DNA from: Clostridia bacterium
GTDB taxonomy: Bacteria; Bacillota; Clostridia; Christensenellales; CAG-138
Direction of reading: 5' to 3'
NCBI GenBank assembly: GCA_017524445.1
Contig: JAFXVP010000072.1
Span: forward strand, 15,183 to 79,182
Length of the DNA: 64,000 bases
A model generated the notes under the pieces. That model was given only the letters and a program-made list of their open reading frames with translations, was not told the origin of the DNA and ran no database searches. Shown piece by piece: positions 1 through 46,180 of this stretch (position 1 is the stretch's first letter; each line of letters begins with the position of its first letter). The position numbers and the translations under genes were made by a program.

Positions 1-455
1 ACGATCCCCGACGGCATCGTGACCGTGATCTTCTGCTTTTTGTCCTCGTCGTGCAGCGCAAGCTCGACCTTCTTCGGCGTTTTCAGGCAGTAATCCTCTG
101 CCTTGCCGTTTTCCACCTTGACCGGCGCGGGCGATTCCGACGTCCAGAAGCTGCCCAGCACGATGGGGCGGTGCGGATTGTTTTCCAGATATCCCAGCAC
201 CACGAGATCGTCCACCTGCGGGAACAGGAAAAGACCGCGCTCCTTTCCTCCCATCGGTGTCATCACGTAGCACCAGTCGGTCAGTTCCTCGTCCGGCGCT
301 CCGATCGGCAGACATTTGACCCGGTTCAGGTTCTGGTCATCCTTGATGTTCTTTACCGTTGCCAGCGTCAGGCTGAAAACGCCGCCCTGCGTGTCCGGAG
401 TGTCGCCGTAGCCGAAGAGCGTTTTCAGTTGATCGCCGATTCCCATGGGGGTCAT
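1..455 (-). CDS. Baseplate central spike, phage gpV / VgrG-like (Afp8-type); 3-prime end cut by window edge
   Basis: Hand translation from ATG at 455 (ATGA overlap with the stop of the upstream gene at 452): MTPMGIGDQLKTLFGYGDTPDTQGGVFSLTLATVKNIKDDQNLNRVKCLPIGAPDEELTDWCYVMTPMGGKERGLFLFPQVDDLVVLGYLENNPHRPIVLGSFW... The FPQVDDLVVLGYLENNPHRPIVLG stretch is the OB-fold signature of gpV/gp5-type spikes. It sits directly after a gpD-like gene. Confidence 0.7.
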   Translation of the reverse strand, partial: MTPMGIGDQLKTLFGYGDTPDTQGGVFSLTLATVKNIKDDQNLNRVKCLPIGAPDEELTDWCYVMTPMGGKERGLFLFPQVDDLVVLGYLENNPHRPIVLGSFWTSESPAPVKVENGKAEDYCLKTPKKVELALHDEDKKQKITVTMPSGI

Positions 456-1549
456 GCTTTTGCTCCTTTCACCTGGAACGAGGTCGTGTAATCGCTGGCG
501 GTAAACTTATGGACGACCTTCGTGAGAAAATACGTGCCGTTCGTAAGCTCGTCACCGCCGTCGATCTTCAGATAGCGACCGGGGATCAGCTCGGGAATTC
601 CGATGCACTCTCCCTCCCCGGAAACAAAGCCCATTGCGATGCTGTTGAGCCGATTCTGCGCCAAAAGCTCGCATTCCTTCTGGGTCCGCACGTATTCGCT
701 GCGTTCGCGAAGCATCGCATCCTTAAGACCGCTGACCCATTCCGCTGCGGTTTTTCCTTCTCCGCCCGTGGTCACTTTCGACGCCGTGCCCTGAATCGCC
801 TTTTGGTTGACGTCACGGCCGAGTATCTCCACCTTGCCGATCTGATGCGCCAGCGAAACCCGCCGTGTAAAGCTGCGAACGCTCTTGTTGATCGTCAGCG
901 TGAGGATCGGCGAGGTCCTGGTCAGCACATTGTCGAAGATCAGCTCGCCGTCGATCGCGAACAGCGACGTTCCGTAGCGTTCCGACATCATCTGCAGAAA
1001 CTTCCAGTCGTCCATCTGCTCCTTGATGATCGGCGTTTCAAAGCCCGTAAGCTGACCTACCTGCATCTTCTTTGCATACCCGGCCGCCACGCTCTTCTGC
1101 AGAATCGATTCCACGATCTGCTTCGGCTGCTTTTCCCCGGCATAGAAGGGCTGACACATATTCATCAGATATCCGAGTCCGTCCAGCCCGTTTACCTTGA
1201 TGTTCGGCGTTCCGTCCTGATCGAATACGAGCGCGTAATCATCGACGTATCCGTAAAACAACTCCGTGCGTGCCTTGCTGTATCCTCCAAGAACCGCGAG
1301 CTTTGCGCCCGGCTTGATCAACGACGACGCATTGTTCTCCCACTTTCTGTTCTTGTAGTCGTACTGCCCTTCGATCGAAAAGGTGCAGCCGCCCACAGCG
1401 CCGCCCGCGGTGATCTCGACCTCAACGCTCGGAATATGGAACTTGCCCTGCGGAAGCTCCTTTCCGTCGACCTGTATCTCAAAGCCCGGCGCGATAAAGT
1501 TATCATGCTTCTTTGCCAGCGAGTCGTAAGTGTATGATCCCTGATCCAT
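452..1549 (-). CDS. Phage late control gene D-like protein (contractile-tail baseplate hub)
   Basis: 365-aa ORF with ATG at 1549 preceded by GGAG. Length and overall pattern match the gpD family. It lies between the LysM tube-initiator and the spike, as in P2 and eCIS loci. Confidence 0.75.
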   Translation of the reverse strand: MDQGSYTYDSLAKKHDNFIAPGFEIQVDGKELPQGKFHIPSVEVEITAGGAVGGCTFSIEGQYDYKNRKWENNASSLIKPGAKLAVLGGYSKARTELFYGYVDDYALVFDQDGTPNIKVNGLDGLGYLMNMCQPFYAGEKQPKQIVESILQKSVAAGYAKKMQVGQLTGFETPIIKEQMDDWKFLQMMSERYGTSLFAIDGELIFDNVLTRTSPILTLTINKSVRSFTRRVSLAHQIGKVEILGRDVNQKAIQGTASKVTTGGEGKTAAEWVSGLKDAMLRERSEYVRTQKECELLAQNRLNSIAMGFVSGEGECIGIPELIPGRYLKIDGGDELTNGTYFLTKVVHKFTASDYTTSFQVKGAKA

Positions 1550-1567: not shown

Positions 1568-2296
1568 TTACAGCAATGCCGGAATGACCAGCATCTCGCC
1601 GTTTCGCAGCATGCGCGGATCGGCCAGGCCGTTTGCCTCCGCGATCACGCGCCATTGCCCTGCGTCACCGTATTCCTCCGCCGCGAGCGCCCAGAGGGAG
1701 TCTCCCTGACGAACCGTGTGATACTTGGTCGTATCGGGCGAGTTCAGCGGGTTTGCGACGTACAGGTCCTTGTTGTCGCGGAACTCCACAAAGCTGCACT
1801 CCAGAAACGCGCGCACCGGCTGCCCCTTCTCGTCAAAGCGTACGAAGCGCTCCCTGCACGAGGAGAGAAAGCCCTTGAACTGCAGCGACGACCACTCCAC
1901 CTTGAGGATCGGCGGACGGTGCAGATCGGAGTCGACGTACATCAGGTTCGTGATCTTTCTCGTGTAGTCCCGAACGTCGATCCCGCCGGCGATGGTCGGC
2001 GCAAGACTGTTCAGCGCGAACTTCGCGCGGTCGGCGAAGCTCCCGCCGACCTCGGAGCCGGCGGAAACACTGTCGAAAAACAGCTCAAACGTCAGCTCCT
2101 CCGCGCCGCCGCTGTGGAACTGCACGACCGGCGCGTCGGCGCCGAGCGACGGGATCGGCCTGTATCTCACGGTCTTCTGACGGGTATAGGTCTGAGGATT
2201 GTAAAGCACGTTGAAGGACTCCCCGTTGTCGACGTCGGTAATCCGCATCTTTTCCACGGGAATCAGAATATTCGGGTTCGGTATTCCGACAAACAT
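1568..2296 (-). CDS. CIS tube-initiator-like protein with C-terminal LysM domain (Afp7 / gpX-like)
   Basis: 242 aa with RBS AGGAGGAAG before the ATG. The N-terminus (ITDVDNGESFNVLYNPQTYTRQKTVRY...ELTFELFFDS) resembles tube-fold proteins. The C-terminus YHTVRQGDSLWALAAEEYGDAGQWRVIAEANGLADPRMLRNGEMLVIP is a canonical LysM motif. Confidence 0.75.
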   Translation of the reverse strand: MFVGIPNPNILIPVEKMRITDVDNGESFNVLYNPQTYTRQKTVRYRPIPSLGADAPVVQFHSGGAEELTFELFFDSVSAGSEVGGSFADRAKFALNSLAPTIAGGIDVRDYTRKITNLMYVDSDLHRPPILKVEWSSLQFKGFLSSCRERFVRFDEKGQPVRAFLECSFVEFRDNKDLYVANPLNSPDTTKYHTVRQGDSLWALAAEEYGDAGQWRVIAEANGLADPRMLRNGEMLVIPALL

Positions 2297-2310: not shown

Positions 2311-5300
2311 TTATCTTCCGCTCCGACGCAGCTCGCGTCTGAGTCTTTCCTCAATAATCTTATAAACCTTGTCCGCTGTGCGCTGGATCTCGGCGTCGTC
2401 GATCTGCTGTCGGGCGGGCCCCTGCCCGGCTTCCCGCGGCTCCTTGAACGACAGCTCCGTCCTGCCGTTCGGATCGCTCTGCTGCGGCATTGCCGTCGGC
2501 GCGGTCCAGTTCACCTGTTTCGAACGCGAAGAACCGGAATTCCAGTTGAACGCAGCGGATTGCTGCTCGGCCGAGCTGACGCCGGACTTCTCCAGCAATT
2601 CCTTTGCCCACGTCGGAAGCGCGCTCGCTTTGTCGCTCTGCGAAACCTTCTCCGAAGCCGCCGCCGTCGGATCCTCGGGCGGCTGCCCGCCGACCGTCGG
2701 CGTCGCGAAGAACAGCTCCGGCTGCTTCGGTGTATTGACCGCGTCCTCGATCGGCAGTGCGATGCGGTCCGCATCCTGCGGTTTTTGCGCGTCCTGCGCC
2801 GCCTGTTCCGCGGTTTGTCTTCCGCTGCGTACGGCGTCCGGCTGCCGACGCCTCTGCTCCGACGTCAATCGGATATCGCGCACGGTTTGCCTCGCCGCCT
2901 TCTCTGCGCGCATCGTTTCTCCGCTCTGCTGCGCCGAAGGTTTGCTTTGCGTCGTCCTGACCGTTTGCCGCAATGCGCTGTGCTCCGCGTTTCTTTCCGG
3001 TTCCTCCCGATAGGTCAGTTCGGCGGGAATGCCCGTTTCCGGATCGATCGAGGGGACCGCGGCAGGTATCGTCGTTTCCGCATACGCGTCTTCTGCCGCT
3101 TCTGCCGGTTCCGCCCCGATCACGCTCTGCGGCGCGATCGTTTTTGCGTCCCTCTGTTCCGAAGTCTGAAGCGCTTGTTGTTCCGGTTCTTGCCGGTAAG
3201 TCAACTCGGCGGGGATATCCGTTTCCGGATCGACCGACGGGATCGCTTCGCGCGTCGCCGTTTCTGCCTGCGCGGCTTCTGCCGGTTCCGTCCCGACTGC
3301 GCTCTGCGGCGCGATCGTTTTTGCGTCCCGCTGTTCTGCGGTCTGATACTCTTCTTGTTTCGCTTCTTGCCGGTAGGCAAGTTCGGCGGGGATATCCGTT
3401 TCCGGATCGACCGACGGGATCGCTTCGCGCGTCGCCGCCTCCGGTTGCGCTGCCGCCTGTGTCCGAACATCTGCCGTTTGCTCTGTCGGTTCGCTCCCCG
3501 GAACAGTTGTCCCTTCCGTGCCGTGCCTCACATTTTCTCCCGAATCCGCCCGGTAAGTCAGTTCCGCGGGAATATCTGCCTCTGAATCTGCGGATGGAAT
3601 CGCGGTGTCTGCTGCCGTCTCGACGCTTGGCTGCACCTCATTTGCCGTTTCCGTCCCGACTGCGCTCTGCGGCGCGATCGTTTTTGCATCCCGCTGTTCT
3701 GCGGTTTGATACTCTTGTTGTTCCGGTTCTTCCCGATAGGTCAGTTCCGCGGGAATATCCGTTTCCGAATTGACCGACGGGATCGCTTCGCGTTTCGCCG
3801 TTTCTGCCTGCGCGGCTTTTGCCGTTTCCGTCCCGACTGCGCTCTGCGATGCAGGCTCTTTTATATTCGATATGACCTTCTGTACAGGCTCTTTTCTGTC
3901 TGTCTGCGCCGCCGTCCGGACCTTCGGTTTTTCCGAATCCTCCTTATAGGTCAGTTCTGCGGGAATATCCGTTTCCGGATCGACCGACGGGATCGCTTCG
4001 CGCGTCGCCGTCTCTGCCTGCGCGGCTTTTGCCGTTTCCGTCCCGACTGCGCTCTGCGATGCGGGCTCTTTTATATTCGATATGGCCTGCTGTACAGGCT
4101 CTTTTCTGTCTGTCTGCGCCGCCGTCCGGACCTTCGGTTTTTCCGAATCCTCCCGATAGGTCAGTTCGGCGGGAATATCCGTTTGCGCAGTTACCGAAGG
4201 GATCGCGGCGTGTGTCGTTGTTTCCGGCTGTGCGGGTTTCGTCGTTTCAATACCGACTGCAGTCTGCGGAACGGGCTGTTTTAAATCTTTCTGCTTTGCG
4301 GACGCATCCTCCGGCTGTTCCGGTTCCTCACGGTAGGTCAGCTCCGCGAACAGCTCCGATTCCGTGCCGGTCGGGACCGCGGCAATGGGCGCGATCGTTT
4401 CCCGCGCGGCTGTTTCCGTCCGAACCGCCGGCTGTCGGAAAGCCGGTTCGGACGCCGCGGCGGTTTTGCGGTCCGGCGCTTCCGACCGGATCTCAGCGTT
4501 TTCCGCTGCGGCAGTCGGCTCTGCCTTTCTCGCCGTCTCCGAAGCGGATACCGGCATTTTACTCCCTTGCGCCGGCGCGGGTTCTGTCTTTTGCGCTTCA
4601 TACGCGTGCGCACGTGCGCGCGTATGAAAATTGCTGCCGCCGCTCTGCGATTCTGCGCTTTCTTTTCGGGTCGCGGTCTTTTCACGCTCTTCGCGTCGAT
4701 CCGGCTTCCCGAACGCTTGTTCTTCGCGCAGCGCATTGCGGCGCAGCGTTTCATCCACTGCGCGGTGTACCTCGCGCAAAACGCGCTCGGTTTCCGAAAT
4801 CTGTTCCGTCCCTTCCGTACCCCATGCAAGCGCGTCCTCAAACGCGCCGTAGTCCTCCGGGACATCAACGACCGTCCTCCGGTTTTCGCTCTGCGCGATC
4901 GCCTCCTCACGGCGGCGGCGCAGCACATCCGGAAGCAGAATACTGCCGACGGAGACGTCTCCCGTCTGCTTCGTTTCCGAACGAACCGGGTAACCGGGAT
5001 GCAGCTCGCGCTGTTTCGGCGTCCAGCCGCCGGCGGCCGGCGCACCCATCATACGGCTCGCGATCGGCAACGTCCGATCCGCAAGCTTGCTCTCCGCGGA
5101 GATCCTTGCCCGGACGGGCTTTGCCGTGCCGGCTGCGGACAGCAGTTTTGACGGCGAGGCCGCGCGTCTCGACAGATCGGCTGATCCGGGATCGCCGACC
5201 TCTTTGATGTGCAGCGTCTCCCGGTCGGCTCCGACGCCGCTCCTTGCCTGTGCCGGGATCGGCTCCGACGCCTTTACGGGTGCGGTCGCGGTATATCTCT

Positions 5301-5682
5301 TTCCGCCGGTCTCGATCACAACGCGGCGGGTCTCGGCGTATGCCGTACGGAGTTCGCGCTCGCGCACGATCACGCGCTCAATGATGCGCTCCCGCGGTGT
5401 CTGGGGCTTTTTCTCGTTCTTTTCCCGCTCCTGCGTCTCCTTGCGCAGGCGGTTCAAAAACAGATCGATGTTGAAATCGACATGGATCTCCGGCGGAGAA
5501 GGCAGCGCTTCACGCTCCGATTCCTCCAAAAACGCCAGAGACACCGGTCGGTAAAAGCCGGGAGAGCGGCTGCTGCGGCCGGCAATTTCCTGCAGGAACA
5601 GCTCCGTAAGTAAACCGAACGGAGACAGGACGTCCTGTCTCGCGACCGTGATATTCGGTTTGGTTACGGCGATGGATTCCAT
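2311..5682 (-). CDS. Repeat-rich putative tail-length tape-measure protein (call by position only)
   Basis: The ORF track starts at a GTG (5691). The ATG at 5682 forms an ATGA overlap with the upstream stop, so I prefer 5682. The protein is low-complexity and rich in E/P/A/T/R, with 8 tandem ~59-70-aa repeats each carrying (D)IPAELTYR(E/Q). It lies between the tube genes and the LysM/gpD genes, the slot occupied by gpT in P2-like tails. No recognisable catalytic motif. Confidence 0.5.
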   Translation of the reverse strand: MESIAVTKPNITVARQDVLSPFGLLTELFLQEIAGRSSRSPGFYRPVSLAFLEESEREALPSPPEIHVDFNIDLFLNRLRKETQEREKNEKKPQTPRERIIERVIVRERELRTAYAETRRVVIETGGKRYTATAPVKASEPIPAQARSGVGADRETLHIKEVGDPGSADLSRRAASPSKLLSAAGTAKPVRARISAESKLADRTLPIASRMMGAPAAGGWTPKQRELHPGYPVRSETKQTGDVSVGSILLPDVLRRRREEAIAQSENRRTVVDVPEDYGAFEDALAWGTEGTEQISETERVLREVHRAVDETLRRNALREEQAFGKPDRREEREKTATRKESAESQSGGSNFHTRARAHAYEAQKTEPAPAQGSKMPVSASETARKAEPTAAAENAEIRSEAPDRKTAAASEPAFRQPAVRTETAARETIAPIAAVPTGTESELFAELTYREEPEQPEDASAKQKDLKQPVPQTAVGIETTKPAQPETTTHAAIPSVTAQTDIPAELTYREDSEKPKVRTAAQTDRKEPVQQAISNIKEPASQSAVGTETAKAAQAETATREAIPSVDPETDIPAELTYKEDSEKPKVRTAAQTDRKEPVQKVISNIKEPASQSAVGTETAKAAQAETAKREAIPSVNSETDIPAELTYREEPEQQEYQTAEQRDAKTIAPQSAVGTETANEVQPSVETAADTAIPSADSEADIPAELTYRADSGENVRHGTEGTTVPGSEPTEQTADVRTQAAAQPEAATREAIPSVDPETDIPAELAYRQEAKQEEYQTAEQRDAKTIAPQSAVGTEPAEAAQAETATREAIPSVDPETDIPAELTYRQEPEQQALQTSEQRDAKTIAPQSVIGAEPAEAAEDAYAETTIPAAVPSIDPETGIPAELTYREEPERNAEHSALRQTVRTTQSKPSAQQSGETMRAEKAARQTVRDIRLTSEQRRRQPDAVRSGRQTAEQAAQDAQKPQDADRIALPIEDAVNTPKQPELFFATPTVGGQPPEDPTAAASEKVSQSDKASALPTWAKELLEKSGVSSAEQQSAAFNWNSGSSRSKQVNWTAPTAMPQQSDPNGRTELSFKEPREAGQGPARQQIDDAEIQRTADKVYKIIEERLRRELRRSGR
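2990..4400 (-). repeat. Eight in-frame tandem repeats (177-210 nt units) inside the tape-measure candidate
   Basis: The reverse complement of the IPAELTY coding string (e.g. taggtcagttcggcgggaat) recurs at about 3011, 3197, 3374, 3553, 3737, 3947, 4157 and 4335. The two 210-nt units (about 3780-4200) are almost identical at DNA level. Confidence 0.85.
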
Positions 5683-6110
5683 CAGTAGCACCCGTTATAG
5701 ATCAATTCGATTCGGCTGACCGCAAGCGCAGGCTGGTTGCTGTTCAGATCGGGTCCGACATACTTCCGAAGATACGCGCCCACGATCGTCCAGGTTCGCT
5801 GCGGCATTCCGAAGCTGTCCATCAGGATCACGGTCCCCGCCAGAGGGATCGACATGCCCGTGGAGGACATGGCCATCAGCAGGGAAACGGAATCCAGCGT
5901 TGTGACGACGCCCTGTTCCAGGATCAGAACCTGCGGCTTGTTTTCTTTGAAGAAGAAGCGCGGGTAGTTGAGACCGCCCTCGTTGTACACCTCGTATTCG
6001 ATCTCCATATTGAGACCGCTCACGGCGGTGAACCTGCCCATGATCGCGGCGCCGGGACCGATCAGCGCAACTTCAAAAAACGAGCCGGAAAGGTAATCGC
6101 TTGAAAACAT
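5682..6110 (-). CDS. Tube-family (gp19-like) protein, third paralog
   Basis: 142 aa. GRFTAVSGLNMEIEYEVYNEGG...VSRIELIYNG echoes the F..V.G...E....Y.EGG pattern of the two clearer tube proteins upstream. Tightly packed in the same operon. Confidence 0.55.
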   Translation of the reverse strand: MFSSDYLSGSFFEVALIGPGAAIMGRFTAVSGLNMEIEYEVYNEGGLNYPRFFFKENKPQVLILEQGVVTTLDSVSLLMAMSSTGMSIPLAGTVILMDSFGMPQRTWTIVGAYLRKYVGPDLNSNQPALAVSRIELIYNGCY

Positions 6111-6116
6111 ACGGCA

Positions 6117-6626
6117 TCATTCCCCCCTCATCTTCAGCATGAGCGGACCGACGGTGCGCTCCATCCCGTGAACGGCAAAGGTCACGCTTTCGGAAAGCAC
6201 CTCGCCGCGGGTGCTGTCCATCGGCGACAGCTCGTAACGGATGGGCATGGCGTCCTTGAGCGACCAGATCACGCCGCGGTTGCCGGCGTCGTCCAGCGCG
6301 ATCACGTTGATCGTGCGGAACAGGTTCACGCCGGTCGGTCCGGTGTGGGTCGACGCGGCTGCCGCAAAGATCCAGTTGAGAAACGCGTTGTCCCCGATCA
6401 CGCCCTTGGTCAGCGTGACCGGCTCAAAGCGCGTCATCACGGGTACGATATCCTGCACGCCGCGAAGATCGCTTCCGGAGCGGGCGGTGATGGTCTGCAC
6501 CTCCATCTTGATCCCGGAAAACTGCGTGAACGCGCCGACCGCGTCGCCGTCCACCTCCACAAGGAAGCGGAAGGATTTGAGCGGTTCGACATAATTTTTT
6601 AAGGAGCCGGGCAGATTGACCTGCAT
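6117..6626 (-). CDS. Contractile-tail tube protein (T4 gp19-like family), second paralog
   Basis: 169 aa. KSFRFLVEVDGDAVGAFTQFSGIKMEVQTITARSGSD...FEPVTLTKGV is the typical tube-protein N-terminal signature. RBS AAGGGGAAG. Confidence 0.8.
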   Translation of the reverse strand: MQVNLPGSLKNYVEPLKSFRFLVEVDGDAVGAFTQFSGIKMEVQTITARSGSDLRGVQDIVPVMTRFEPVTLTKGVIGDNAFLNWIFAAAASTHTGPTGVNLFRTINVIALDDAGNRGVIWSLKDAMPIRYELSPMDSTRGEVLSESVTFAVHGMERTVGPLMLKMRGE

Positions 6627-6638: not shown

Positions 6639-6881
6639 TTACCGAAATTCGAATGTTTTATTCTTATCGTTCCCGCTGAGCTTTTTGTTCACCGCGGAGA
6701 CCTCCGCGCACCAGCGGCGGCGCTCCTGATGACTCAGCGCCATGACTTCATCGCGGGACCAGTGCAGATAATAGGACAGGAACGTCATCTCCTGATAGAG
6801 CTGCTCCTGTGGATACAGCACCAGTCCTACGCTAATAAAAAATCCAGCGGTACCTCGATCTGCTGATTGCAATGCGGGCAT
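6639..6881 (-). CDS. Small ORF in the -1 frame of the upstream chaperone-like gene; candidate frameshift extension or independent small protein
   Basis: 80-aa ORF overlapping the 3-prime end of 6827..7186 by 55 nt. Conserved-looking core: YPQEQLYQEMTFLSYYLHWSRDEVMALSHQERRRWCAEV. Independent starts are possible (GTG 6821, ATG 6788) but none has a good RBS. From memory it resembles the small conserved protein seen in this slot of Gram-positive eCIS loci; unverified. Confidence 0.5.
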   Translation of the reverse strand: MPALQSADRGTAGFFISVGLVLYPQEQLYQEMTFLSYYLHWSRDEVMALSHQERRRWCAEVSAVNKKLSGNDKNKTFEFR

Positions 6882-7186
6882 ACGACCTTATAGGTCGGCA
6901 TGTCGGACATGTTGATCCGCTGATACAGATCCTGCAGATACGCAAGGTCCATTGTGAACAGCCCTTCGATGACGTGCGTGTTGATGCTGTTCAGCGTCCC
7001 CAGCCGCGTGATCACCCGCGAGAGCAGAATGATCGTGAGATATCCCGCGTTCTGCTGTACGCGCGGATCGCGCATCGGAAGGATCTCGTCCGCGGCAGTC
7101 GCAAGGCGCATGGTTCCGCGCTTGTGAACATCGCCGTTTTTATCGACATAGCCCTTCGGCAGTTCAAATTCAAATTCTGTCTCCAT
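6827..7186 (-). CDS. Tail assembly chaperone-like protein (call by position)
   Basis: The ORF-track start at 7225 is a TTG. The ATG at 7186 (METEFEFELPKGYVD...) has an AGAGAGG RBS, giving 119 aa. It lies between the tube gene and the tape-measure candidate, where the gpE/E+E' (P2) and G/GT (lambda) chaperones sit. Confidence 0.5.
   Translation of the reverse strand: METEFEFELPKGYVDKNGDVHKRGTMRLATAADEILPMRDPRVQQNAGYLTIILLSRVITRLGTLNSINTHVIEGLFTMDLAYLQDLYQRINMSDMPTYKVVCPHCNQQIEVPLDFLLA
6836..6842 (-). promoter_or_regulatory. Candidate -1 programmed ribosomal frameshift heptamer T TTT TTA
   Basis: The mRNA reads ...CTG GAT TTT TTA TTA GCG TAG in the zero frame. This is an X XXY YYZ site 6 nt before the stop. 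A -1 slip enters the 6639..6881 frame exactly (…GGA TTT TTT ATT AGC GTA…). Confidence 0.55.
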
Positions 7187-7276: not shown

Positions 7277-7756
7277 TCAGATGGGTGACGGTTCCGCCGA
7301 TGCAGAGCCCGGCGTATGCTCGAGGCCTTCGTGGCAGAGTTCCAGAGACTGGATCGCCACTTCGCCGCCCAGACCGTTGAGATCCGGCACGGTGTAGCCG
7401 ACAGGCCATGCATTGATGAGGTTCCAGGACGGGCCGGGGCTTCCGGCGTCGTCGATGAGGGTGATCGTCACGTTGTGACGCAGAATGCCGGTAGGCGGCG
7501 CGGTGTTCGTCGGCGCGACGGAGTACACCCAATCGAGGAAGTCTGCGTCGTCCGAGACGCCCCAGCGGAGCGTGACGTTGCCGAATTTTGTGAGACCCGC
7601 CAGTTTACGCGGCGTGTTGCGCAGGTCGTCGCCTTCGCGGTATTCGACTGCGTCCGTTGAGGAGCTCATGCCGGATACCTCCGAGAAGCCCGCACGGCTG
7701 ATGCCGTCGATCTCGACCTGATATCGAAATACTCTGTATGGATAATTGATAGCCAT
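7277..7756 (-). CDS. Contractile-tail tube protein (T4 gp19-like family), main tube
   Basis: 159 aa. MAINYPYRVFRYQVEIDGISRAGFSEVSGMSSSTDAVEYREGDD is the classic eCIS/phage tube N-terminus. RBS AAAGGA. Immediately downstream of the sheath gene. Confidence 0.85.
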   Translation of the reverse strand: MAINYPYRVFRYQVEIDGISRAGFSEVSGMSSSTDAVEYREGDDLRNTPRKLAGLTKFGNVTLRWGVSDDADFLDWVYSVAPTNTAPPTGILRHNVTITLIDDAGSPGPSWNLINAWPVGYTVPDLNGLGGEVAIQSLELCHEGLEHTPGSASAEPSPI

Positions 7757-37273: not shown

Positions 37274-40200
37274 TCAGCTGAAGTATCCGAGTCCTTTCAG
37301 CGCGCGGATAAATCGGTCGATATAGTCCCATGTGGTGACCGGCCAGTTGAATCCGAGCCGGTACAGTACCTGCATGGTATATTCGTTGTGCCGCGGCATC
37401 ATGACCGTCTCCCGGCTGCCCGGCGCGTTGCGATACGCCATGATGCTCGTCAGTTCCTGCGCTTTTTTCGGATCGCTTTCCGCCTCGGCGAACGCTTTTG
37501 CAAACACGTCGCTTTCCACGGCACGGACCGGCATTCCGAGCTTGCCCATCTCGCTGAAGATCGCGTTGAACAGAACCTGCTGATGGTTGAACGCATGGAA
37601 GACGCGGCTCTCCTCCGGCGTGCGCGAAAGCGCAACGACAGCTTCGGCGACCGCATCGATCGGCGAAAACTCCATCGTCAGGTCCGCCTGTTCGTAGGAA
37701 TAGCAGCCGAGCATCTGGAATGCGTGCAGTCTGCCCATAGCGGAATTTGTCTGGAAATTGGCCTGGAATTCACCGTCCGAATAGCGCGCCGCAAGGTTGC
37801 CGAGACGGATGATCTTTGTGTGCAGCCCGTCTCTTGCGGCGGCTTCGAGCACCGCGCGCTCGGCAAGGAATTTCGAACGGACGTACTTGTTGTCCAGCAG
37901 CTGCCCGAAGTACAGCATCTGTTCGCGCACGACAAGCCCGTCTGGGATCTTGTCCTTATAGATCGACGTTACCGTGCTCATGGTGGACGTCTGTACCAGC
38001 GCCGCGCCTGTACGCTTGCAGAAGGAGATCAGGTTCCTTACGCCGCCGAGATTGACGTCCTCGAGCAGCGTACCGCTTGAGAAATGCTTGACCACGGCGG
38101 CGCAGTTGATCACCGTCTGCACCTCGCCGGGTCCGATCGGATCCAGCACATGCGCGTCGGTCACATCGCCGTCGATCGGCAGGATGCGGGTGCCGAACAG
38201 TTCTTCATAGCTGTTGTCGAAGTAGTAGAACAGCATGCCCTTGAGCCGCTTGACGGCGTCTATTCCCCGACGGCCGCGCAGCAGACAATAGATCCTGCCG
38301 GTTTCCTTTTCGATCAGTTCGTGTACCACGTGGATCCCGAGGTATCCGGTCGCGCCGGTGACCAGCACGTTTCCGAGTTCTCTGCGCGTACCCGCACGGA
38401 AGCGTTCGAGCGTATTCTCGTCAAGCAGCTTCCGGATCTCCGTATAGTCATATCCGGTGATTTCGGGATCGTCCTCCTCGACCGTCTTGACTGTGTCCGT
38501 ATCGCCGAGATGCTGTGCAAGCTCGCGCGCGGTCGGATGCGCGAACACGTCCGCGAACGAAACGGCAAGCCCCTGTTTCTGCGCGGCTATGATGACGTTT
38601 GTAACGAGCAGCGACGTACCGCCGAGCTCGAAGAAGTTCTCCTCAGCGCCGACGTCCTCGACGTGCAGCAGTTCGGAGAAGATGCGGCAGATCGCTTTTT
38701 CCGTCTCGCTTGCGGCTTTCGCGCCGTTGTCCGCACGGTAAAGCTGCGGCGCCGGCAGATTCTTGAGATCCAGTTTGCCGTTCGGCGTGATCGGCATCGC
38801 GTCGAGCTGCATATATGCGGTGGGGACCATGTAATTGGTCAGCGTTCTGCCGAGCTCCTTTTTCAGCGCGCCGATATCCACCGCGTGATCCGCCGTGAAC
38901 CATGCGCACAGATGCTCGATGCCGTTGATCTTGTCGATCTTGACCGCGCACCGCGTGATGCCCGGCACCGCGGAAAGCACCGATTCCACTTCCCCAAGCT
39001 CGATGCGCAGACCGCGCAGCTTGATCTGATTGTCCTTTCTGCCGAGGATCTCGACGTTGCCGTCCTCGGTCCACCGCGCGAAGTCGCCCGAGCAGTAAAT
39101 GCGGATCCCCTGATACGTGCGGAACCGTTCCGCCGTCATTTCGGGCAGGTTGTGATAGCCCTTTGCAACGCCCGGTCCGCCGATGTACAGCTCGCCGACG
39201 ACGCCGACGGGCACCTCGTTGCCGTCCGAATCCACAATGAACTCGGTCACGTTCAAAAGCGGCCTGCCGACCGATACGCTTGCGTCGTGCGTCAGCTCAC
39301 GGATGTTGCACGAAACCGTGATCTCCGTCGGTCCGTATGTGTTGAAGATGCGCGCGGAAAACGCCGTCTGCAGACGTTTCAGGAGACTGTCCGGATATTT
39401 TTCGCCCGCGCACACGATGATGCGGCAGCGGGACAGCGCTTCCCGGAACGCTTTCGACTCCAGCAGCGTCATCAGGCGCGACGGCGTTGCCTGGAACAGA
39501 TCGGTATTCGTCTCGGTCATGCGGACGGCGAGCGCGTTCGCGTCGTTGCATTCGTTATCGCTTGCGAGCACAAAGGTCAGGCCGTTGAACAGCGTGACGG
39601 CAAACTCCTTGACCGACATATCGAACGACAGCGTCGTGACGCCCGTGATGGTGTGCCCTTCCTCGCAATAGGCGTGCACCAGGATATTTGCCGGCGCGTC
39701 GGTCATGTAATTTACGATGCCCCGGTGCGTGAGCATAACGCCCTTCGGCTTGCCCGTAGAACCGGAGGTATAGATCAGATACGCAAGATCGTCCGGCGCG
39801 ATCGCGACGTCCGGTCTTGTTTCGTTCGGCTCCTCCAGCAGCGTTTCCGCGTCGACCGCGGGCATATCGGTGAAACGGGCGAGCCGCTCGCGGTCGGTGA
39901 TGACCAGCGACGCGCCGGAATCCTCAAGGATGTGCCGCACACGTTCGACGGGATACTTCGGATCGCACGGAATGTACGCGCAGCCCGACTTCAGCACCCC
40001 GAACAGGGAGATGATCACGCGCGAAGTCCTCGGCAGCAGCAGCACGATCTTTCCGCCCGGCCGCACGCCGCGCGCGATCAGCGCGTTGGCAACGCGGTTT
40101 GCCGCCGCGTCAAGCGCCGCATAGGTATAGCTTGCGTCGCAGGCGATCAGCGCAGGATGATCCGGCGTCTGCTTTGCAAAGCGTTCGAGCCCCGACTGAT

Positions 40201-43200
40201 ACCGTGTCTCCGGAGCGATGACGGTCGGATCGTCCACCCTGCGGAAAGCATCGATCTGTGCCTGCCGCGATTCATCGAGCAGGGAAATGCTGCGGAGCTT
40301 TCTTCTGCCGAACGCCGCGAGTTTTTCGACCGTGATCGCGTAGGAACGAACGAATTCGCGCATCAGACCTGCCGAATACAGCGCGTCGTTGTATTCAACG
40401 GCGATCTGCGGTCCTTCCTTGCCGTCCTCAATGCGTACGGTCATCTTGAATTTCGCGCGGTCGGGTTCCAGTCCCTCTGCTTTCAGTATGCCCGGGATCG
40501 CAGGTTTTTCGAGGATCCCGCGCTGGTATTCATACATGACCTGCGGGGTGAAGCCCCAGTCGGCGGCGACCTGTGCGAACGGATGGTTCTCGTGCGCGAT
40601 CGCCTGCTCGAGGCCGTCCGAAACGGTTTTGATGAATTCATCCACGGTCCCGTCGTCCAGCTTTGCGGCAAGCGGCAGCGTATTGACGAACATACCGAAC
40701 GTATCGGAGAAGCGGATATCGCTTCGTCCGCTGCTGATCGTGGCGATGTATACGTGATCGGAGGCGGTCAGCCGCGCAAGCGTATAGTCGAGCGCCGCAA
40801 GCAGGAAGCCCGCCTCGGTGACCCGGCAGCGCGTACAAGCACTTTGCAGGTCTTTTTCACGCAGCGGATGCACTGCATACGCCTTTTTGCTGCCCATGCC
40901 CTTGCCGGGGATGTCGCCGGTAAGTTCGGTTGCGGATTCATAGTCCGCAAACAGATCATTGAGATACGCCTTTGTTTCCTCCGCCTGCGTGCCTTCGAGC
41001 AGCGCTTTCTGCTCGCGGGCAAAGAACGCATACGACGCGCTTTCCCTCTCCACGGCAGCGCCGTTCAGCGCTTCTCCGAGATCCTTCAGGAAGATGTTGA
41101 ATGAGAATCCGTCGAACACAAGATGATGGAAATCGGAGAACAGCCGCACCGCGGCGGGCGTTCTGACAACCGTGAAACGGAACAGCGGACCCTGTCCGAG
41201 GCGGAACGGCATCACAAACGTTTTGCGCAGCGCCTCGCATTCCTCCTCCGTCATCTCGCGGACCGGGATCTTGTACGGTTCGGTATTTCGCACCGACGTG
41301 ACGCGATCGTTGCGGATCTCGAAGTGAACGTCAACGGACCGGTGCGCGTCGATGACGCTGCGCACGGCTGCAGCGAGCGCGTCCGGATCGGTCGACGGAT
41401 CAAAGGTCAGCACCGACGGGATATTATACGCCGTGCTGTCCGGCTCCTTCATGCAGTCCACATAGATGCCCTGCTGCGCGGCGGAAAGCTCCGCTTCGGT
41501 GATCTCCTCGGTCTGCGCGTTCTGCGCGGAAGACCCGTTCATCCATTGATCCAAAATCCGGTCTTCGATCTCGCGGATCGTGATCGTGCCGAGCTCCTTT
41601 GCGTCGAACTTGACGTCGAACCGCTTGAACAGCCACGCGGACAGCCGGATCGTGCCGAGACTTGTGAGTCCCAGCCACGCAAGCTGCGTGCCGAGCGGCG
41701 GATGCGGGGCGTTGATCGCCTGTCCAACGATCTCCCGCAGGGCTGCTTCCAGCGCGTTGTCCTCATGCGTATCGTCCTCCGCACCGACTGCGGGCAGTTC
41801 GGGCTTCGGCAGTGCGCGGCGGTTGACCTTGCCGTTCGGCGTCAGCGGAATCTTGTCAAGCTGTACGAAAGCGGCGGGGATCATATACGGCGGCTTGCGC
41901 TCTCCGATATATTGCTTCAGCGCTTCCGTGTCGATCGGCGCGTCTCCGACCACATATGCCGCAATGGATTTGCCGTCCGCGCCGAGATCGATCGCGTTGA
42001 CCGTTACGTCGCGCACTGACGGGAATTCGCGAATGACGGCTTCGATCTCGGTCAGTTCGATACGGAACCCGTGAATTTTCACCTGTCCGTCACGACGTCC
42101 GATAAACTCGATCTCGCCGTCCGAACGGTAGCGCACGATGTCGCCGGTGCGATAGGCGCGCGCCCAGATACCGCCGTCAAACGGATTGTCGATAAAGACC
42201 TCCGCCGTCTTTTCCGGACGGTTCAGGTATCCGTCGCCGACGTTCGGTCCCGCGATCAGCAGCTCGCCGATCGCGCCTGCAGGCAGCTGATGCCCGAAGG
42301 CGTCGACGACATAGCATTTGACGTTTTCAAGCGGTCTGCCGATCGGGATGTTCTCTTCCGATCTTGTCACCGGGTAGATCGTCGAAAAGATCGTGCACTC
42401 GGTCGGTCCGTAAGCGTTATAGAACGCGTACGTCTTCGGCGGCTCCATGGAAGCAAGCTTTTCGCCGCCCACCGAAAGCGCCCTCAGATACGGATTTTCC
42501 ATCTCTGCGGCGAACTGCCGTCCGACCTGCGTGGTCAAAAATGCGAGCGAAACGCGGCGCTCCGCAAAGAAGCGGTTCATCGTCTCCAGATCATAGCGCA
42601 TCTCCTCGGGAACGATGCATACCGCCGCGCCGGAACACAGCGCCGGATACATATCCATCATGCACGCGTCGAATCCGTAGGACGCATACTGTCCGACGCG
42701 GTCGAGCGGCGTCAGCGCATAGAAGCGGCGGTACCATTCGATGAACGAAACAAGGTTCGCGTGAGTCAGCCGCACCCCCTTCGGCACGCCGGTACTGCCG
42801 GACGTATAGAGCAGAATAAAGAGATCCTCCGGCTTGCAAACAGCTTTCGGCGTACCGTCCGGAAGCGCTTCGATCTCCCGAATCGTCAGCCGCCGGCCGT
42901 CGTATTCCGTGATGTGTTCGCCAAGCTCTTCTGTCGTGATCAGAAGCTTTGCCGCGGCGTCACGCACCATAAAGTTCAGGCGCTCCGCCGGATACGTGCC
43001 GTCAAGCGGCTGATAGGCGCAGCCGGCCTTGAGCGCGCCGAGGAACGTGATCGCCTGATACCGTCCGCGCGGGATCAGCACGGATACGACGTCGCCTCTG
43101 CCCAGACCGAACTGCTGCAAATGCGCGGCAAGCGCGTCCGTTCTGCGGTCAAGCTCCGAATAGGTCATCTCGCCGTCCTCGTCGATCACCGCGACGGACG

Positions 43201-46180
43201 AGCCGAACTGTTCGGCTGCCCGGTTGAACATGGAAACAACGGTCGCGCCCGTATCATAGTCAAAGGTGCGGTCGTTCCACGACGCAAGCAGCTTCCGCTG
43301 CGCTTCGCTTGCCGGCGAGATCTCGCCGACCGTCTCGCAGCGCAGCATCCGCACGAGCACGTTCTCGTAACTTTCGAGGATCGTACGGATCATTTCTTCG
43401 GAATAGAGATCGCTGCGGTATTCGGCGCGGATGTTGTAAACGCCGCCCTGCTTGTACATCTGGATCGTGATCTTCTCACCGGTCGCGTTGTCCATCAGCG
43501 GGATCCGCTCGATCGGCGTACCGGAAAATCCGCCGACGTTCAGCACGTCACCCTGATACACAAACAGCAGATCGCTGGTCACGCCGGTCTCCGCGGCCAG
43601 ATCGGCGAACGGATACGCGTCGTGCGCCATGCAGCCGAGCATCTGTGCCTTCGCGTTTTCGAGGTATGTGACGATCGGCATCTGTGCGTCGAACGAGGAC
43701 CACACCGGCAGCGTCCGCACCAGCATAGCCACCGTCCGCGCGGTGCGCAGGGAATCACGCCCGTTATAGATCGTTGCGAACAGGGCTTCTTTCGCGCCGG
43801 AGAACAGCCCCGCGCAAAGGCCGAACGCGGCTGTTGCGTAGATGTTTTCGGTAACGCCCGCCTCCCGGCAGAACGCCTCGGCTTCCACCGCTTCCAGCGC
43901 AAGCGCACGCTCAACCGTTCCGAACGACGGCGTCGGCTCGTAACGGTCACGGATCGGCAGACTGTCGAGATCAAGCGCGCCGAAGATGTTCAGATACCAG
44001 TCTTTTGATTCGTCATAGCTCTTTGCGCGCTTTTCCGCCTCGTCCTCCGCCACCTCGAAACCGCCGTAGCGCTCCGTCTCCGGCGTTTCGCCGTTGTATG
44101 CGCGTTCCAGATCGTTGAGCAGCACCAGCATGGAGGAGCCGTCGAAAATGATGTGATGGAAATCCATGAACAGATAGGTCGTCCGTTCCGTCCGGATGAC
44201 GCGAATGCGGAACAGGCGGTCCTTCAGAAGTCGGAACGGCTGCATCAGCTTCGGCTGCAGCGCCGCAAACTGCGCCTCCGTCATTTGTTCGACCGCCTGT
44301 GTATACGGTTCTTCGTCGTTGCGGTTCTGCCACGGGTTGCCCTCCGTGTCCACCGTAATACGCATCTTGATGAACGGATGCGCCGTCACCGCCGCTTCGA
44401 CCGCACGGCACAGACGTCCCGGTTCGATCGTCGGATCGAGCTTCAGCAAAATCGGATTGTTGTAAACCGCTTCCCCGTCATGCTGCATCGACGCGACATA
44501 GATGCCGATCTGTGCGTCGGACAGCGGATAACGGTCCTTCTTTTCGCGCAGCTTTGCCTTGCCGCTGCCGATGAGAAGCGCGGCGATCGCACGCGGCGTT
44601 CTTGCCGCATAGATCTGTTTGGTCGTAAGATCCAGTTCCGGGCATGCCGTTGCAAGCTTCATGACACGGATGCTGTCGCCGCCCAGCCGGAAGAAATCAT
44701 CGTCGATCCCGATCGGACGGACGCCGAGACTCTCCTCAAACGCACGGCACAGCAGCGCTTCCGTTTCGTTTTCAGGCGCGGCATAGTCCGCGCGCTGCTC
44801 CGCAAAGTCGGGATCCGGCAGAGACTTGCGATCCTCCTTGCCGTTACTGTTCAGCGGCAGTGTGTCAAGATGCACATAAACAGACGGAACCATGTAGGCG
44901 GCAAGCCGCTTTTCGAGCGCGGCGCGGATCACCTCTTCGGTCTGCGTCCCGGTAAACCATGCGCACAGGAGCGTCTGCCCGTCCGGTGAACGAACGCCCT
45001 TGACGACCGCGGTGTCGACGCCGTCGACCTCGCGCATTGCCATTTCGATCTCGCCCGGTTCTACGCGCTGCCCGTTGATCTTCAGCATCCAGTCCTTGCG
45101 GTTGATGTACACCAGATTCCCGTCCGGCAATTCTTTCAGAATGTCGCCCGTATGCAGCCAGCCGTCGCGATAGAGCTTTGCGGTTGCGTCCGGATCCTTG
45201 AAATATCCCTTTGTAAAGACGCCGCGGACGCACATTTCCCCTTCCTCGCCCTTCGGAACGGGGTTGCCGTCTTCGCCGAGGATGCACCACTCGATGTGCT
45301 CCTTCGGAATGCCGACCGGCGTCGTTTCGAACGGCTGTTCCACAAGATAGGCGCACAGCGTGCCGAGCGTTTCGCTCATACCGTAGTTGTTCCAGAGCTT
45401 ATAACCGTCCTTGCCGTACTGCCCGGTCAACCGCTCGCTGCCGGTAAACACGAGTCCGAGCGTAGTCGAACGGTTGTGGAAATTCCGAAGTACGGCGGGA
45501 CTGATAAACGCTACCGTGATGCCGTGCCGCTCGATATAATCCTCCAGAAGGCGCACGTCGCGGTTCGTTTCATGGCTGATCAGATGCACCGTACCGCCGC
45601 CCATCAGTACCTTAAAGACCGACATGCCTGCGACAAAATAGAACGGCGCCCCCATTGCCCATACCGCGGACGGTCCGTACGAGCCCGTGAACGCCTTCGG
45701 GAGCGTGAACTTTAGCCCCGCAAACGAATGCAGGATGCCCTTCGGCGCGCCTGTGGAGCCGGACGTATATAAAAGGATCGCCGTATCATCGTCGGTCGAT
45801 TCCGGGCAGAGCGCCGGATCGACCGGTTCGCACGCAAGGATCTCTTCGAGCGCGGTTTCGTCGATGATGAACGGCGCGTCGCAATGCAGCGAGATATACC
45901 GCACACGCTCCTGCGGAAAGGTATCCCCCATCGGCACGGCGATGTGTCCGGCAAGCAGGACGCCAACTTCCACAGCGGCATATTCCATCGATGCAGGCAA
46001 ACGGATCGGAATGAACGCGCGTTCCGAAAGCCCTTTTTCGAGCAGCCATGCCGCGGTCTTCCGAACAAGCGTGCCGAAGGTGCGATAATCGGTGCGGCGC
46101 GTTCCGTTTCTGTCGCAGATCGCAACCGAATCCGCAAAGGTCTCGGTCGCGGTCAGAATCTTTTCGAGATACAGGTGCAT
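37274..46180 (-). CDS. Trimodular non-ribosomal peptide synthetase, A-T-C-A-T-C-A-T-R (terminal thioester reductase)
   Basis: 2968 aa, RBS AGGAGG. Three A-domain cores (LLYTSGSTGAPKG, LLYTSGSTGVPKG, LIYTSGSTGKPKG). Carrier motifs FFRLGGDSI, GLTSLGT, FFELGGTSL. Two condensation motifs (HHIIFDGSS, HHLVFDGFS). C-terminal SDR-type reductase VLVTGATGYLGIHV (encoded near 38330-38375) continuing to the stop. Confidence 0.9.
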   Translation of the reverse strand: MHLYLEKILTATETFADSVAICDRNGTRRTDYRTFGTLVRKTAAWLLEKGLSERAFIPIRLPASMEYAAVEVGVLLAGHIAVPMGDTFPQERVRYISLHCDAPFIIDETALEEILACEPVDPALCPESTDDDTAILLYTSGSTGAPKGILHSFAGLKFTLPKAFTGSYGPSAVWAMGAPFYFVAGMSVFKVLMGGGTVHLISHETNRDVRLLEDYIERHGITVAFISPAVLRNFHNRSTTLGLVFTGSERLTGQYGKDGYKLWNNYGMSETLGTLCAYLVEQPFETTPVGIPKEHIEWCILGEDGNPVPKGEEGEMCVRGVFTKGYFKDPDATAKLYRDGWLHTGDILKELPDGNLVYINRKDWMLKINGQRVEPGEIEMAMREVDGVDTAVVKGVRSPDGQTLLCAWFTGTQTEEVIRAALEKRLAAYMVPSVYVHLDTLPLNSNGKEDRKSLPDPDFAEQRADYAAPENETEALLCRAFEESLGVRPIGIDDDFFRLGGDSIRVMKLATACPELDLTTKQIYAARTPRAIAALLIGSGKAKLREKKDRYPLSDAQIGIYVASMQHDGEAVYNNPILLKLDPTIEPGRLCRAVEAAVTAHPFIKMRITVDTEGNPWQNRNDEEPYTQAVEQMTEAQFAALQPKLMQPFRLLKDRLFRIRVIRTERTTYLFMDFHHIIFDGSSMLVLLNDLERAYNGETPETERYGGFEVAEDEAEKRAKSYDESKDWYLNIFGALDLDSLPIRDRYEPTPSFGTVERALALEAVEAEAFCREAGVTENIYATAAFGLCAGLFSGAKEALFATIYNGRDSLRTARTVAMLVRTLPVWSSFDAQMPIVTYLENAKAQMLGCMAHDAYPFADLAAETGVTSDLLFVYQGDVLNVGGFSGTPIERIPLMDNATGEKITIQMYKQGGVYNIRAEYRSDLYSEEMIRTILESYENVLVRMLRCETVGEISPASEAQRKLLASWNDRTFDYDTGATVVSMFNRAAEQFGSSVAVIDEDGEMTYSELDRRTDALAAHLQQFGLGRGDVVSVLIPRGRYQAITFLGALKAGCAYQPLDGTYPAERLNFMVRDAAAKLLITTEELGEHITEYDGRRLTIREIEALPDGTPKAVCKPEDLFILLYTSGSTGVPKGVRLTHANLVSFIEWYRRFYALTPLDRVGQYASYGFDACMMDMYPALCSGAAVCIVPEEMRYDLETMNRFFAERRVSLAFLTTQVGRQFAAEMENPYLRALSVGGEKLASMEPPKTYAFYNAYGPTECTIFSTIYPVTRSEENIPIGRPLENVKCYVVDAFGHQLPAGAIGELLIAGPNVGDGYLNRPEKTAEVFIDNPFDGGIWARAYRTGDIVRYRSDGEIEFIGRRDGQVKIHGFRIELTEIEAVIREFPSVRDVTVNAIDLGADGKSIAAYVVGDAPIDTEALKQYIGERKPPYMIPAAFVQLDKIPLTPNGKVNRRALPKPELPAVGAEDDTHEDNALEAALREIVGQAINAPHPPLGTQLAWLGLTSLGTIRLSAWLFKRFDVKFDAKELGTITIREIEDRILDQWMNGSSAQNAQTEEITEAELSAAQQGIYVDCMKEPDSTAYNIPSVLTFDPSTDPDALAAAVRSVIDAHRSVDVHFEIRNDRVTSVRNTEPYKIPVREMTEEECEALRKTFVMPFRLGQGPLFRFTVVRTPAAVRLFSDFHHLVFDGFSFNIFLKDLGEALNGAAVERESASYAFFAREQKALLEGTQAEETKAYLNDLFADYESATELTGDIPGKGMGSKKAYAVHPLREKDLQSACTRCRVTEAGFLLAALDYTLARLTASDHVYIATISSGRSDIRFSDTFGMFVNTLPLAAKLDDGTVDEFIKTVSDGLEQAIAHENHPFAQVAADWGFTPQVMYEYQRGILEKPAIPGILKAEGLEPDRAKFKMTVRIEDGKEGPQIAVEYNDALYSAGLMREFVRSYAITVEKLAAFGRRKLRSISLLDESRQAQIDAFRRVDDPTVIAPETRYQSGLERFAKQTPDHPALIACDASYTYAALDAAANRVANALIARGVRPGGKIVLLLPRTSRVIISLFGVLKSGCAYIPCDPKYPVERVRHILEDSGASLVITDRERLARFTDMPAVDAETLLEEPNETRPDVAIAPDDLAYLIYTSGSTGKPKGVMLTHRGIVNYMTDAPANILVHAYCEEGHTITGVTTLSFDMSVKEFAVTLFNGLTFVLASDNECNDANALAVRMTETNTDLFQATPSRLMTLLESKAFREALSRCRIIVCAGEKYPDSLLKRLQTAFSARIFNTYGPTEITVSCNIRELTHDASVSVGRPLLNVTEFIVDSDGNEVPVGVVGELYIGGPGVAKGYHNLPEMTAERFRTYQGIRIYCSGDFARWTEDGNVEILGRKDNQIKLRGLRIELGEVESVLSAVPGITRCAVKIDKINGIEHLCAWFTADHAVDIGALKKELGRTLTNYMVPTAYMQLDAMPITPNGKLDLKNLPAPQLYRADNGAKAASETEKAICRIFSELLHVEDVGAEENFFELGGTSLLVTNVIIAAQKQGLAVSFADVFAHPTARELAQHLGDTDTVKTVEEDDPEITGYDYTEIRKLLDENTLERFRAGTRRELGNVLVTGATGYLGIHVVHELIEKETGRIYCLLRGRRGIDAVKRLKGMLFYYFDNSYEELFGTRILPIDGDVTDAHVLDPIGPGEVQTVINCAAVVKHFSSGTLLEDVNLGGVRNLISFCKRTGAALVQTSTMSTVTSIYKDKIPDGLVVREQMLYFGQLLDNKYVRSKFLAERAVLEAAARDGLHTKIIRLGNLAARYSDGEFQANFQTNSAMGRLHAFQMLGCYSYEQADLTMEFSPIDAVAEAVVALSRTPEESRVFHAFNHQQVLFNAIFSEMGKLGMPVRAVESDVFAKAFAEAESDPKKAQELTSIMAYRNAPGSRETVMMPRHNEYTMQVLYRLGFNWPVTTWDYIDRFIRALKGLGYFS

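Follow-up and report, generated by a model that had tools for sequence, protein, structure and literature searches.

What measures particle length in contractile injection systems (CIS) that have no recognisable ruler? The question is raised by a locus at the left end of a 64,000-nucleotide (nt) stretch of Clostridia bacterium DNA (assembly GCA_017524445.1, contig JAFXVP010000072.1, positions 15,183 to 79,182; hereafter the window). The locus encodes an extracellular contractile injection system (eCIS), and one of its genes, here called the repeat gene, specifies a protein of 1123 amino acids (aa) with a tandem array in its middle. With a probability of roughly 55%, this gene encodes the tape-measure equivalent, or a lumen scaffold, of a lineage-II-type eCIS in uncultured rumen and gut Oscillospirales/Clostridia. 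It is best read as a ruler or scaffold inside the tube that is specific to its lineage and largely disordered, with a hypothetical effect on particle length.

In lineage-II CIS a ruler is apparently missing. Afp14 homologues are generally absent from lineage II eCIS (Chen et al., PMC6899500), Streptomyces CIS are without a typical tape measure, and no cis14 or recognisable tape measure was found in haloarchaeal CIS (PMC11566945); yet CIS-Sc particles engineered to be non-contractile have a uniform length of about 230 nm in vitro (Casu et al., PMC10066040). Gene position, size, the start/stop overlap with a tube paralogue, conserved synteny, conserved ends around a variable middle and a terminal helix, all as read or predicted from the sequence, would fit a ruler or scaffold. 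The same may be said of an upstream chaperone-like gene with the heptamer T_TTT_TTA, a polymorphic unit number, in-frame arrays and the enrichment of a short anchor motif.

The repeat gene and its place in the locus

The longest open reading frame (ORF) of the repeat gene runs 2311..5691 on the minus strand and opens at a GTG. The ATG at 5682 is taken as the true start because MESIAV opens all homologues, which gives a gene at 2311-5682 with 1123 codons and a stop. The product is 100% identical to the NCBI "MAG: Clostridia bacterium" hypothetical protein IKP38_10760. The gene and its array comprise the following features.

2311..5682, minus strand: repeat gene, in the tape-measure position; its start codon shares 1 nt with the stop of the tube paralogue upstream
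3031..4353, minus strand: seven full tandem units, aa 444-884; acidic, rich in A, E, T, P and Q, predicted disordered
3967..4176, minus strand: unit 2, 210 nt, aa 503-572; 95% identical to unit 3
3757..3966, minus strand: unit 3, 210 nt, aa 573-642; 99% identical to the orthologous unit 3 of strain L002
3007..3030, minus strand: eighth anchor, IPAELTYR; start of the C-terminal segment that lacks repeats

Eight anchors of the form [LI][FP]AEL[TA]Y[RK] mark the array, at 4330-4353, 4153-4176, 3943-3966, 3733-3756, 3550-3573, 3370-3393, 3193-3216 and 3007-3030. The first is degenerate (LFAELTYR). Successive anchors are 177, 210, 210, 183, 180, 177 and 186 nt apart (59, 70, 70, 61, 60, 59 and 62 aa). 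A preliminary description of this DNA had reported anchors spaced by 177-210 nt; their positions are reproduced exactly, on the minus strand, and Tandem Repeats Finder independently finds concordant arrays of period 177 (3098-3848) and period 210 (3717-4283, 87% matches). The same description counted eight tandem repeats. That number applies to the anchors, which bound seven complete units; past the eighth anchor, identity to the units is only 27-35%. The 210-nt pair, previously called almost identical, agrees at 199 of 210 nt (95%; 11 differences), and in every other pairing of units DNA identity is 57-77%. When 24 units from three strains are aligned, the 80% consensus is ETDIPAEL.YR...Q.D...Q...G...Q.ET....AIPS. 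In general form the periodic anchor is hydrophobic-P-x-E-L-x-Y-R-E, and the anchor peptide is written DIPAELTYREEPE.

The array-bearing gene sits within a structural operon that runs sheath, tube, chaperone-like ORF, DUF6760, two tube paralogues, repeat gene, CIS_tube+LysM initiator, hub, spike, gp25 and baseplate J, an order that from the tube gene onward is identical in every relative locus inspected. The window stops at the hub, and the leftward continuation is read from the near-identical strain L002, where Phage_base_V, gp25, two Baseplate_J-like proteins (967 and 689 aa) and two unassigned proteins follow. The operon genes within the window are listed below.

7798..9549, minus strand: tail sheath, 583 aa; PF04984 and PF17482, phrog_23 4e-78
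7277..7756, minus strand: main tube protein, gp19-like, 159 aa; PF06841 1.5e-39
6827..7186, minus strand: tail-assembly-chaperone-like ORF, 119 aa; phrog_508 6.3e-07; stops just past the slippery heptamer
6639..6881, minus strand: DUF6760 ORF, in the -1 frame relative to the chaperone-like ORF; PF20546 1.9e-16
6117..6626, minus strand: tube paralogue, 169 aa; PF06841 5.7e-25
5682..6110, minus strand: tube paralogue, gp19-like, 142 aa, translationally coupled to the repeat gene; PF06841 1.8e-16
1568..2296, minus strand: tube initiator (CIS_tube + LysM; Afp7/Cis7-like); PF19266 1.6e-30, LysM 8e-07
452..1549, minus strand: hub, gpD/YQBQ-like tail protein; phrog_52 1.1e-13, with Phage_GPD matches in orthologues

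The repeat gene is the largest ORF of this operon and lies upstream of the CIS_tube+LysM gene with a spacing of 15 nt. From the sheath to the end of L002, no other ORF is comparably long and of low complexity, the biggest others being the two Baseplate_J-like genes. The sheath is nearest to those of Streptomyces, haloarchaeal, Deinococcus and Paenibacillus CIS, that is, of lineage-II-type systems.

Upstream, the slippery heptamer T_TTT_TTA lies at 6836-6842 on the minus strand. The chaperone-like ORF ends four codons later and DUF6760 follows in the -1 frame, an arrangement that looks like a programmed frameshift of the phage gpG/gpGT type, which in phages lies upstream of tape-measure genes, within an eCIS operon. 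The slippery-site string GGATTTTTTATT is kept in the four loci L001-L004 while neighbouring synonymous sites vary, and it is kept even where the protein in the tape-measure position is just 24-26% identical to that of the window. The same -1 frame relation between the two ORFs is present in a Streptomyces plasmid locus. DUF6760 is not mentioned in the searchable literature and, of the papers there that bring together contractile injection systems, frameshifting and tail assembly chaperones, none appears by title and abstract to deal with a chaperone frameshift in an eCIS.

Unit turnover and family conservation

Two ENA contigs carry the same gene with 9 and 10 anchors (8 and 9 units), against the 8 anchors and seven units of the window. 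The alleles encode 1123, 1161 and 1232 aa, and their flanks are 97.5-99.7% identical in nt among the three strains. Repeat gain or loss between strains, as envisaged in the preliminary description, is thus borne out in these short-read assemblies, where near-identical flanks enclose 7, 8 or 9 units. Matched unit by unit, L002 has two whole extra units relative to the window. The alleles show unequal recombination and gene conversion between units adding, removing and homogenising whole 59-70-aa units among close strains.

The near-identical 210-nt pair had been attributed to a recent duplication. Its near-identity stands. Its origin is described less well by a plain new duplication than by the older unit 3 having converted unit 2 or replaced it with a copy of itself, because unit 3 matches unit 3 of L002 (99%) and the slot of unit 2 differs, being filled in L002 by a 59-aa unit that is 82% identical. 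A JGI contig (L012; 98% identical, an independent assembly) shows the same 59-70-70-aa unit order before ending inside the array; the tandem 70-aa pair is therefore not an artefact of a single assembly. At all 11 sites that differ between units 2 and 3, a G or C in unit 2 stands opposite an A or T in unit 3, and 9 of the 11 unit-3 states are common to the orthologous L002 unit. Both GC-biased conversion and a mutational bias in one copy are possible sources of this one-directional pattern.

Contigs end inside the repeat gene in 8 of 17 species-level loci (L019, L021-L023 and L029-L032) and in L012. This suggests that internal arrays routinely break short-read assemblies, leaving the family under-represented among full-length sequences.

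Relatives of the repeat protein are few. Out of 1.84 billion representatives, a profile of the C-terminal 150 aa matches only 266 clusters, in each case at the very C-terminal end, and the genome matches are all rumen or gut metagenome-assembled genomes (Oscillospiraceae, Christensenellaceae, Butyricicoccus, Agathobaculum and Faecalibacterium). The protein collection records PF28347.1 for two relatives (P0005 and P0007), so that a recent Pfam entry may already cover part of the family. Conservation lies at the two ends of the protein:

4708..5682, minus strand: conserved N-terminal region, aa 1-325; invariant L19 S20 F22 G23 ... G246-SILLPD-x2-R-x-RR
2314..2730, minus strand: conserved C-terminal region, aa 985-1123; motifs LPxWAKELLE, QxxWTAP and ELxF+E, plus the terminal helix
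2320..2397, minus strand: terminal amphipathic basic helix DAEIQRTADKVYKIIEERLRRELRRS, aa 1096-1121; nearly invariant, predicted with a local confidence score (predicted local distance difference test, pLDDT) above 90

The final 28 residues (AE.QRTADKVYRIIEERLRRELRRSGR) are almost invariant across the family, and the middle of the protein cannot be aligned across it. Ten of the 17 species-level loci have in-frame, long-period tandem arrays of their own, with periods of 147-408 nt (49-136 aa) that are all multiples of 3. These include 53-aa units with TELLYRE anchors, 106-aa units with PELVYRT anchors, and alternating EPMVHRT and EAIVHRE anchors. Such arrays, with their other periods, show independent construction in related species. 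The core [ED]-hydrophobic-x-[YF]-[RK] occurs 218 times in the middles of 118 family members, against 2.6 expected from shuffles, an excess that excludes chance for the anchors and is inflated by shared ancestry. Judged from these comparisons, what the family keeps is the anchor motif and a long middle, not the spacer sequence. The middle is hundreds of residues long in all 45 full-length representatives save one outlier of 264 aa, and complete genes in species-level genomes encode 921-1585 aa. A tight length constraint, which a first match list had seemed to indicate (median 1211 aa, interquartile range 1190-1251), was rejected after wider sampling.

Comparison with known rulers

In the tape measures of other eCIS, N- and C-terminal regions alike in secondary-structure make-up flank a middle that varies in length and is predicted to be almost entirely alpha-helical (PROCIS preprint, 10.64898/2026.05.27.728243). 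Like Afp14, Pvc14 and Alg14 (PF19268), the repeat protein belongs to an eCIS and has conserved ends and a variable-length middle. In Afp and AlgoCIS, particle length changes with the length of the middle, a role that is only proposed here for the repeat protein. Unlike Afp14, a protein of 535 aa encoded after the fibre gene and before the AAA ATPase, it has 1123 aa, and its gene is flanked by those of the tube paralogues and the LysM initiator. Its middle, in contrast to the helical Afp14 type, is predicted disordered and built of 59-70-aa units, and homology between the two is not detectable.

The repeat gene also resembles those of phage tape measures, among them proteins with internal tandem repeats and the length rulers lambda gpH and T4 gp29: a chaperone gene with a -1 slippery site precedes it, hub and baseplate genes follow, it is the largest tail gene and it contains repeats. 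Unlike them, it has no family match, is not predicted to form a helical or coiled-coil body, and lacks hydrophobic segments and a lytic domain; moreover, two tube paralogues intervene after the chaperone.

Several results weigh against reading the protein as a ruler or scaffold. Neither CIS_TMP (PF19268) nor any other family of the Pfam library used matches the window protein (threshold E<=0.01) or four of its relatives (threshold E<=1), whereas the positive control Afp14 (pADAP) scores 1.9e-49 for CIS_TMP in the same library. Aligned by hhalign with 28 Afp14 relatives, the full-length and C-terminal profiles reach a probability of 0.1% (E 0.49-0.56). PHROGs, the Pfam phage tape-measure families and NCBIfam return no match to the protein or its relatives, PDB sequence searches with the single protein and with full-length, N- and C-terminal profiles return chance matches or none, and tblastn with the C-terminal 189 aa finds nothing in 50,697 phage records.

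The predicted fold points the same way. AlphaFold2, run on the full protein with a 60-sequence alignment, gives a mean pLDDT of 44 and a predicted template modelling score (pTM) of 0.29, and residues 326-1017 almost all fall below 50 with essentially no secondary structure. A transmembrane or hydrophobic segment was not found in the repeat protein (maximum KD19 0.91). Full-length members span 640-1947 aa in a search of 50%-identity representatives, so that total length is not tightly held. Between strains, the ratio of non-synonymous to synonymous polymorphism (pN/pS) is 0.69 and 1.05 in the repeats, which is near neutral, and 0.17-0.32 in the termini. All sequences are short-read metagenome assemblies, several genes ending at contig edges within the array, and the locus is covered as far as a downstream ORF of 593+ aa.

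An N-terminal alignment to Afp14 (E=0.15) was rejected, since it vanished in profile-profile comparison. The helical central region that is a trait of CIS_TMP was not seen either, the AlphaFold2 model having no helix between residues 325 and 1023. The repeat protein is accordingly assigned to no tape-measure family, because it fails to qualify for any known one. The earlier proposal of a tape-measure candidate is partly supported: position, size and conserved ends around a variable middle speak for it, and homology to known tape-measure families is lacking.

Across the whole model, 900 of the 1123 residues have a pLDDT below 50. The N-terminal 325 aa form six isolated helices (pLDDT 50-83) and one beta-hairpin joined by low-confidence linkers; a separate model of the N-terminal 335 aa (mean pLDDT 57, pTM 0.17) has the same elements without a compact domain. 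The confident elements at the C-terminus are a short helix (1024-1032) and the terminal helix (1096-1121), the latter a candidate docking element for the hub or tube initiator. The middle is 12-16% hydrophobic, compared with 22-30% in the N-terminus; proline makes up 5-12% of each 100-aa block, and the net charge over the repeat region is -42. A disordered spacer had been offered as the alternative to a repeat-built ruler, and the structural half of that suggestion is favoured by the predicted disorder of the repeat region.

The disorder also suits an explanation in which the protein is a scaffold or plug of the lumen and not a ruler. Its C-terminus would bind it to the hub, and it would be needed for initiating or filling the tube, with the repeats as tolerated filler and length set by another factor or by the ends alone. 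Near-neutral pN/pS in the repeats agrees with this, as does a length that varies about three-fold in the family and by 10% between close strains with no sign of compensation. Filler would not be expected to retain its anchors, yet the motif is kept in distant members whose spacers are unrelated; the long middle is present in all but one of the 45 full-length representatives, and no array period breaks the reading frame. In Alg14, duplicating or deleting the middle alters AlgoCIS length at 0.229 nm per residue (10.64898/2026.05.27.728243), though that middle is helical. On this evidence we consider the filler explanation rather doubtful.

A second comparison is with tape-measure-derived cargo. 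Tme of Streptomyces davawensis has the same gene position, is about 70% disordered, carries DUF4157, transmembrane helices and a nuclease, and binds the spike and the tube initiator (PMC11126660). Like Tme, the repeat protein belongs to a lineage-II-type CIS, is encoded by the largest ORF directly upstream of the tube initiator, spike and baseplate genes, and is mostly disordered. It could then be a cargo or effector carried in the tube and ejected into the target, in the manner of Tme or of Sle1 from S. lividans, with the repeats serving either its loading or a function inside the target. Sle1, a tape-measure-like cargo, lacks DUF4157 (PMC13277306), and AlgoCIS cargo is led into the lumen by disordered N-terminal regions (10.64898/2026.05.27.728243). 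Several observations make such a role quite improbable here. Unlike the Tme/Sle1 comparison set, the repeat protein is without DUF4157, transmembrane helices, a nuclease or a long coiled coil. DUF4157 (PF13699), enzymatic or toxin domains, a transmembrane helix and the C-terminal nuclease domain of Tme were all undetected in it, while the same library finds DUF4157 in five neighbouring genes, which already supply cargo from a separate operon:

12919..22984, plus strand: five consecutive eCIS_core (DUF4157) cargo or effector genes, divergent; PF13699 5e-20 to 6e-17 in 5/5

What is conserved in the repeat protein is, in addition, its two ends and not a payload domain.

The dependence on short-read metagenomic assemblies, whose contigs often break in the array, lends something to the further notion that the repeat polymorphism is an assembly artefact, or that the protein stands outside the particle as a low-complexity surface or matrix protein that merely shares the operon. 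Four independent assemblies agree on the unit sequences and on the 59-70-70 order. Strict synteny and translational coupling in a structural operon are maintained across species at 24-98% identity, and no hydrophobic N-terminal or membrane-spanning segment was seen, signal-peptide and anchor motifs not having been specifically searched. Little credence can be given to either version of this notion.

A possible mechanism and the wider locus

For the preferred reading, a ruler or scaffold in the tube lumen, a mechanism can be outlined. The C-terminal amphipathic helix, with the preceding LPxWAKELLE and WTAP motifs, would dock in the initiator/hub complex, and the chain would stretch up the lumen as tube and sheath polymerise around it. 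The helical N-terminal region would mark the distal end, where capping would halt growth. The middle, of about 690 residues, would act as an acidic, proline-rich disordered chain with a periodic short motif, not as a helical rod. Because the motif is kept family-wide while spacers drift, the anchor probably makes repeated contacts with the tube lumen or with the upstream chaperone (the 119-aa protein/DUF6760).

Whole-unit gain or loss by recombination would shift length between strains. Extrapolated at the published eCIS values of 0.216-0.229 nm per residue, which come from helical rulers and might not apply to a disordered chain, alleles of 1123, 1161 and 1232 aa would correspond to about 242-257, 250-266 and 266-282 nm, and one unit to ~13-16 nm. 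More generally, and more tentatively than for the repeat gene itself, lineage-II CIS might measure length with an unrelated disordered ruler whose ends and periodic short motif are conserved and whose unit turnover tunes length, hence cargo capacity; at present this generalisation seems rather unlikely.

Repeat-tuned rulers are already known in principle. Tandem repeats in phage tape measures contribute to length variation, according to Belcaid et al. 2011 as cited in PMC13585406. In YscP, internal repeat motifs of 14, 25 and 46 aa vary in number between strains of one species and protein length is linear with needle length (PMC3469391); this type III needle ruler is an analogy of principle only, belonging to an unrelated machine and sequence family. 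The novelty here lies in a ruler candidate that is disordered and motif-periodic, found in an eCIS lineage without a recognised ruler, together with natural copy-number alleles. If the ruler reading is true, a disordered chain with periodic contact motifs would extend the tape-measure principle beyond helical rods, and engineers of eCIS delivery would gain a modular handle on length and cargo, one unit being ~60 aa. The natural 7-, 8- and 9-unit alleles make the missing-ruler gap of lineage II directly testable. If the protein is not a ruler, the locus still shows repeats driving length polymorphism of a structural gene in Clostridia from gut and rumen.

Syntenic low-complexity ORFs in other bacteria offer a lead on wider distribution, about which no claim is made. 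On a plasmid of Streptomyces sp. NBC_01426 (L007, 14793-18500, plus strand), a P/A-rich ORF of 1235 aa follows DUF6760 and precedes tube and LysM genes. It ends in DELVHRIIDRVTRLVRTELRMDRERIGR, and only its last 255 aa are listed as a gene in the PLSDB table, which is incomplete. In Paenibacillus cellulosilyticus (L010, 15591-18133, plus strand), a syntenic pair of 352- and 532-aa ORFs ends in LSDADMKKLTEQVYGMLERKLKIAKERRGLQR. Both ends resemble the basic amphipathic terminal helix of the repeat protein, a similarity that is statistically weak: hhalign against the Streptomyces ORF aligns the last 28 aa (E=0.04, probability 1.3%), and a hidden Markov model of the C-terminal 34 aa ranks the Paenibacillus ORF first of 1118 ORFs (E=0.15) and misses the Streptomyces ORF.

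The locus as a whole is a chromosomal eCIS of a fibre-degrading Clostridia bacterium and not a prophage, because genes for a nonribosomal peptide synthetase, a dockerin protein and ABC exporters fill the rest of the window. A prophage tail was considered and rejected: no capsid or terminase function turned up among the scanned window ORFs, and the five DUF4157 cargo genes contradict it along with these chromosomal neighbours. The DUF4157 genes encode proteins of 930, 775, 332, 378 and 868 aa, each with an N-terminal eCIS_core at about aa 47-130. Farther along the window, all on the minus strand, come the 2968-aa synthetase (37274-46180), with three AMP-binding and two condensation matches, carrier domains and a terminal reductase; a 2941-aa protein (47513-56338) with Calx-beta, DUF7507 and a C-terminal dockerin; and two ABC exporters (56416-60795), one with a C39 peptidase domain. 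These genes are unrelated to the repeats and place the window in the chromosome of a cellulosome-bearing Clostridia bacterium.

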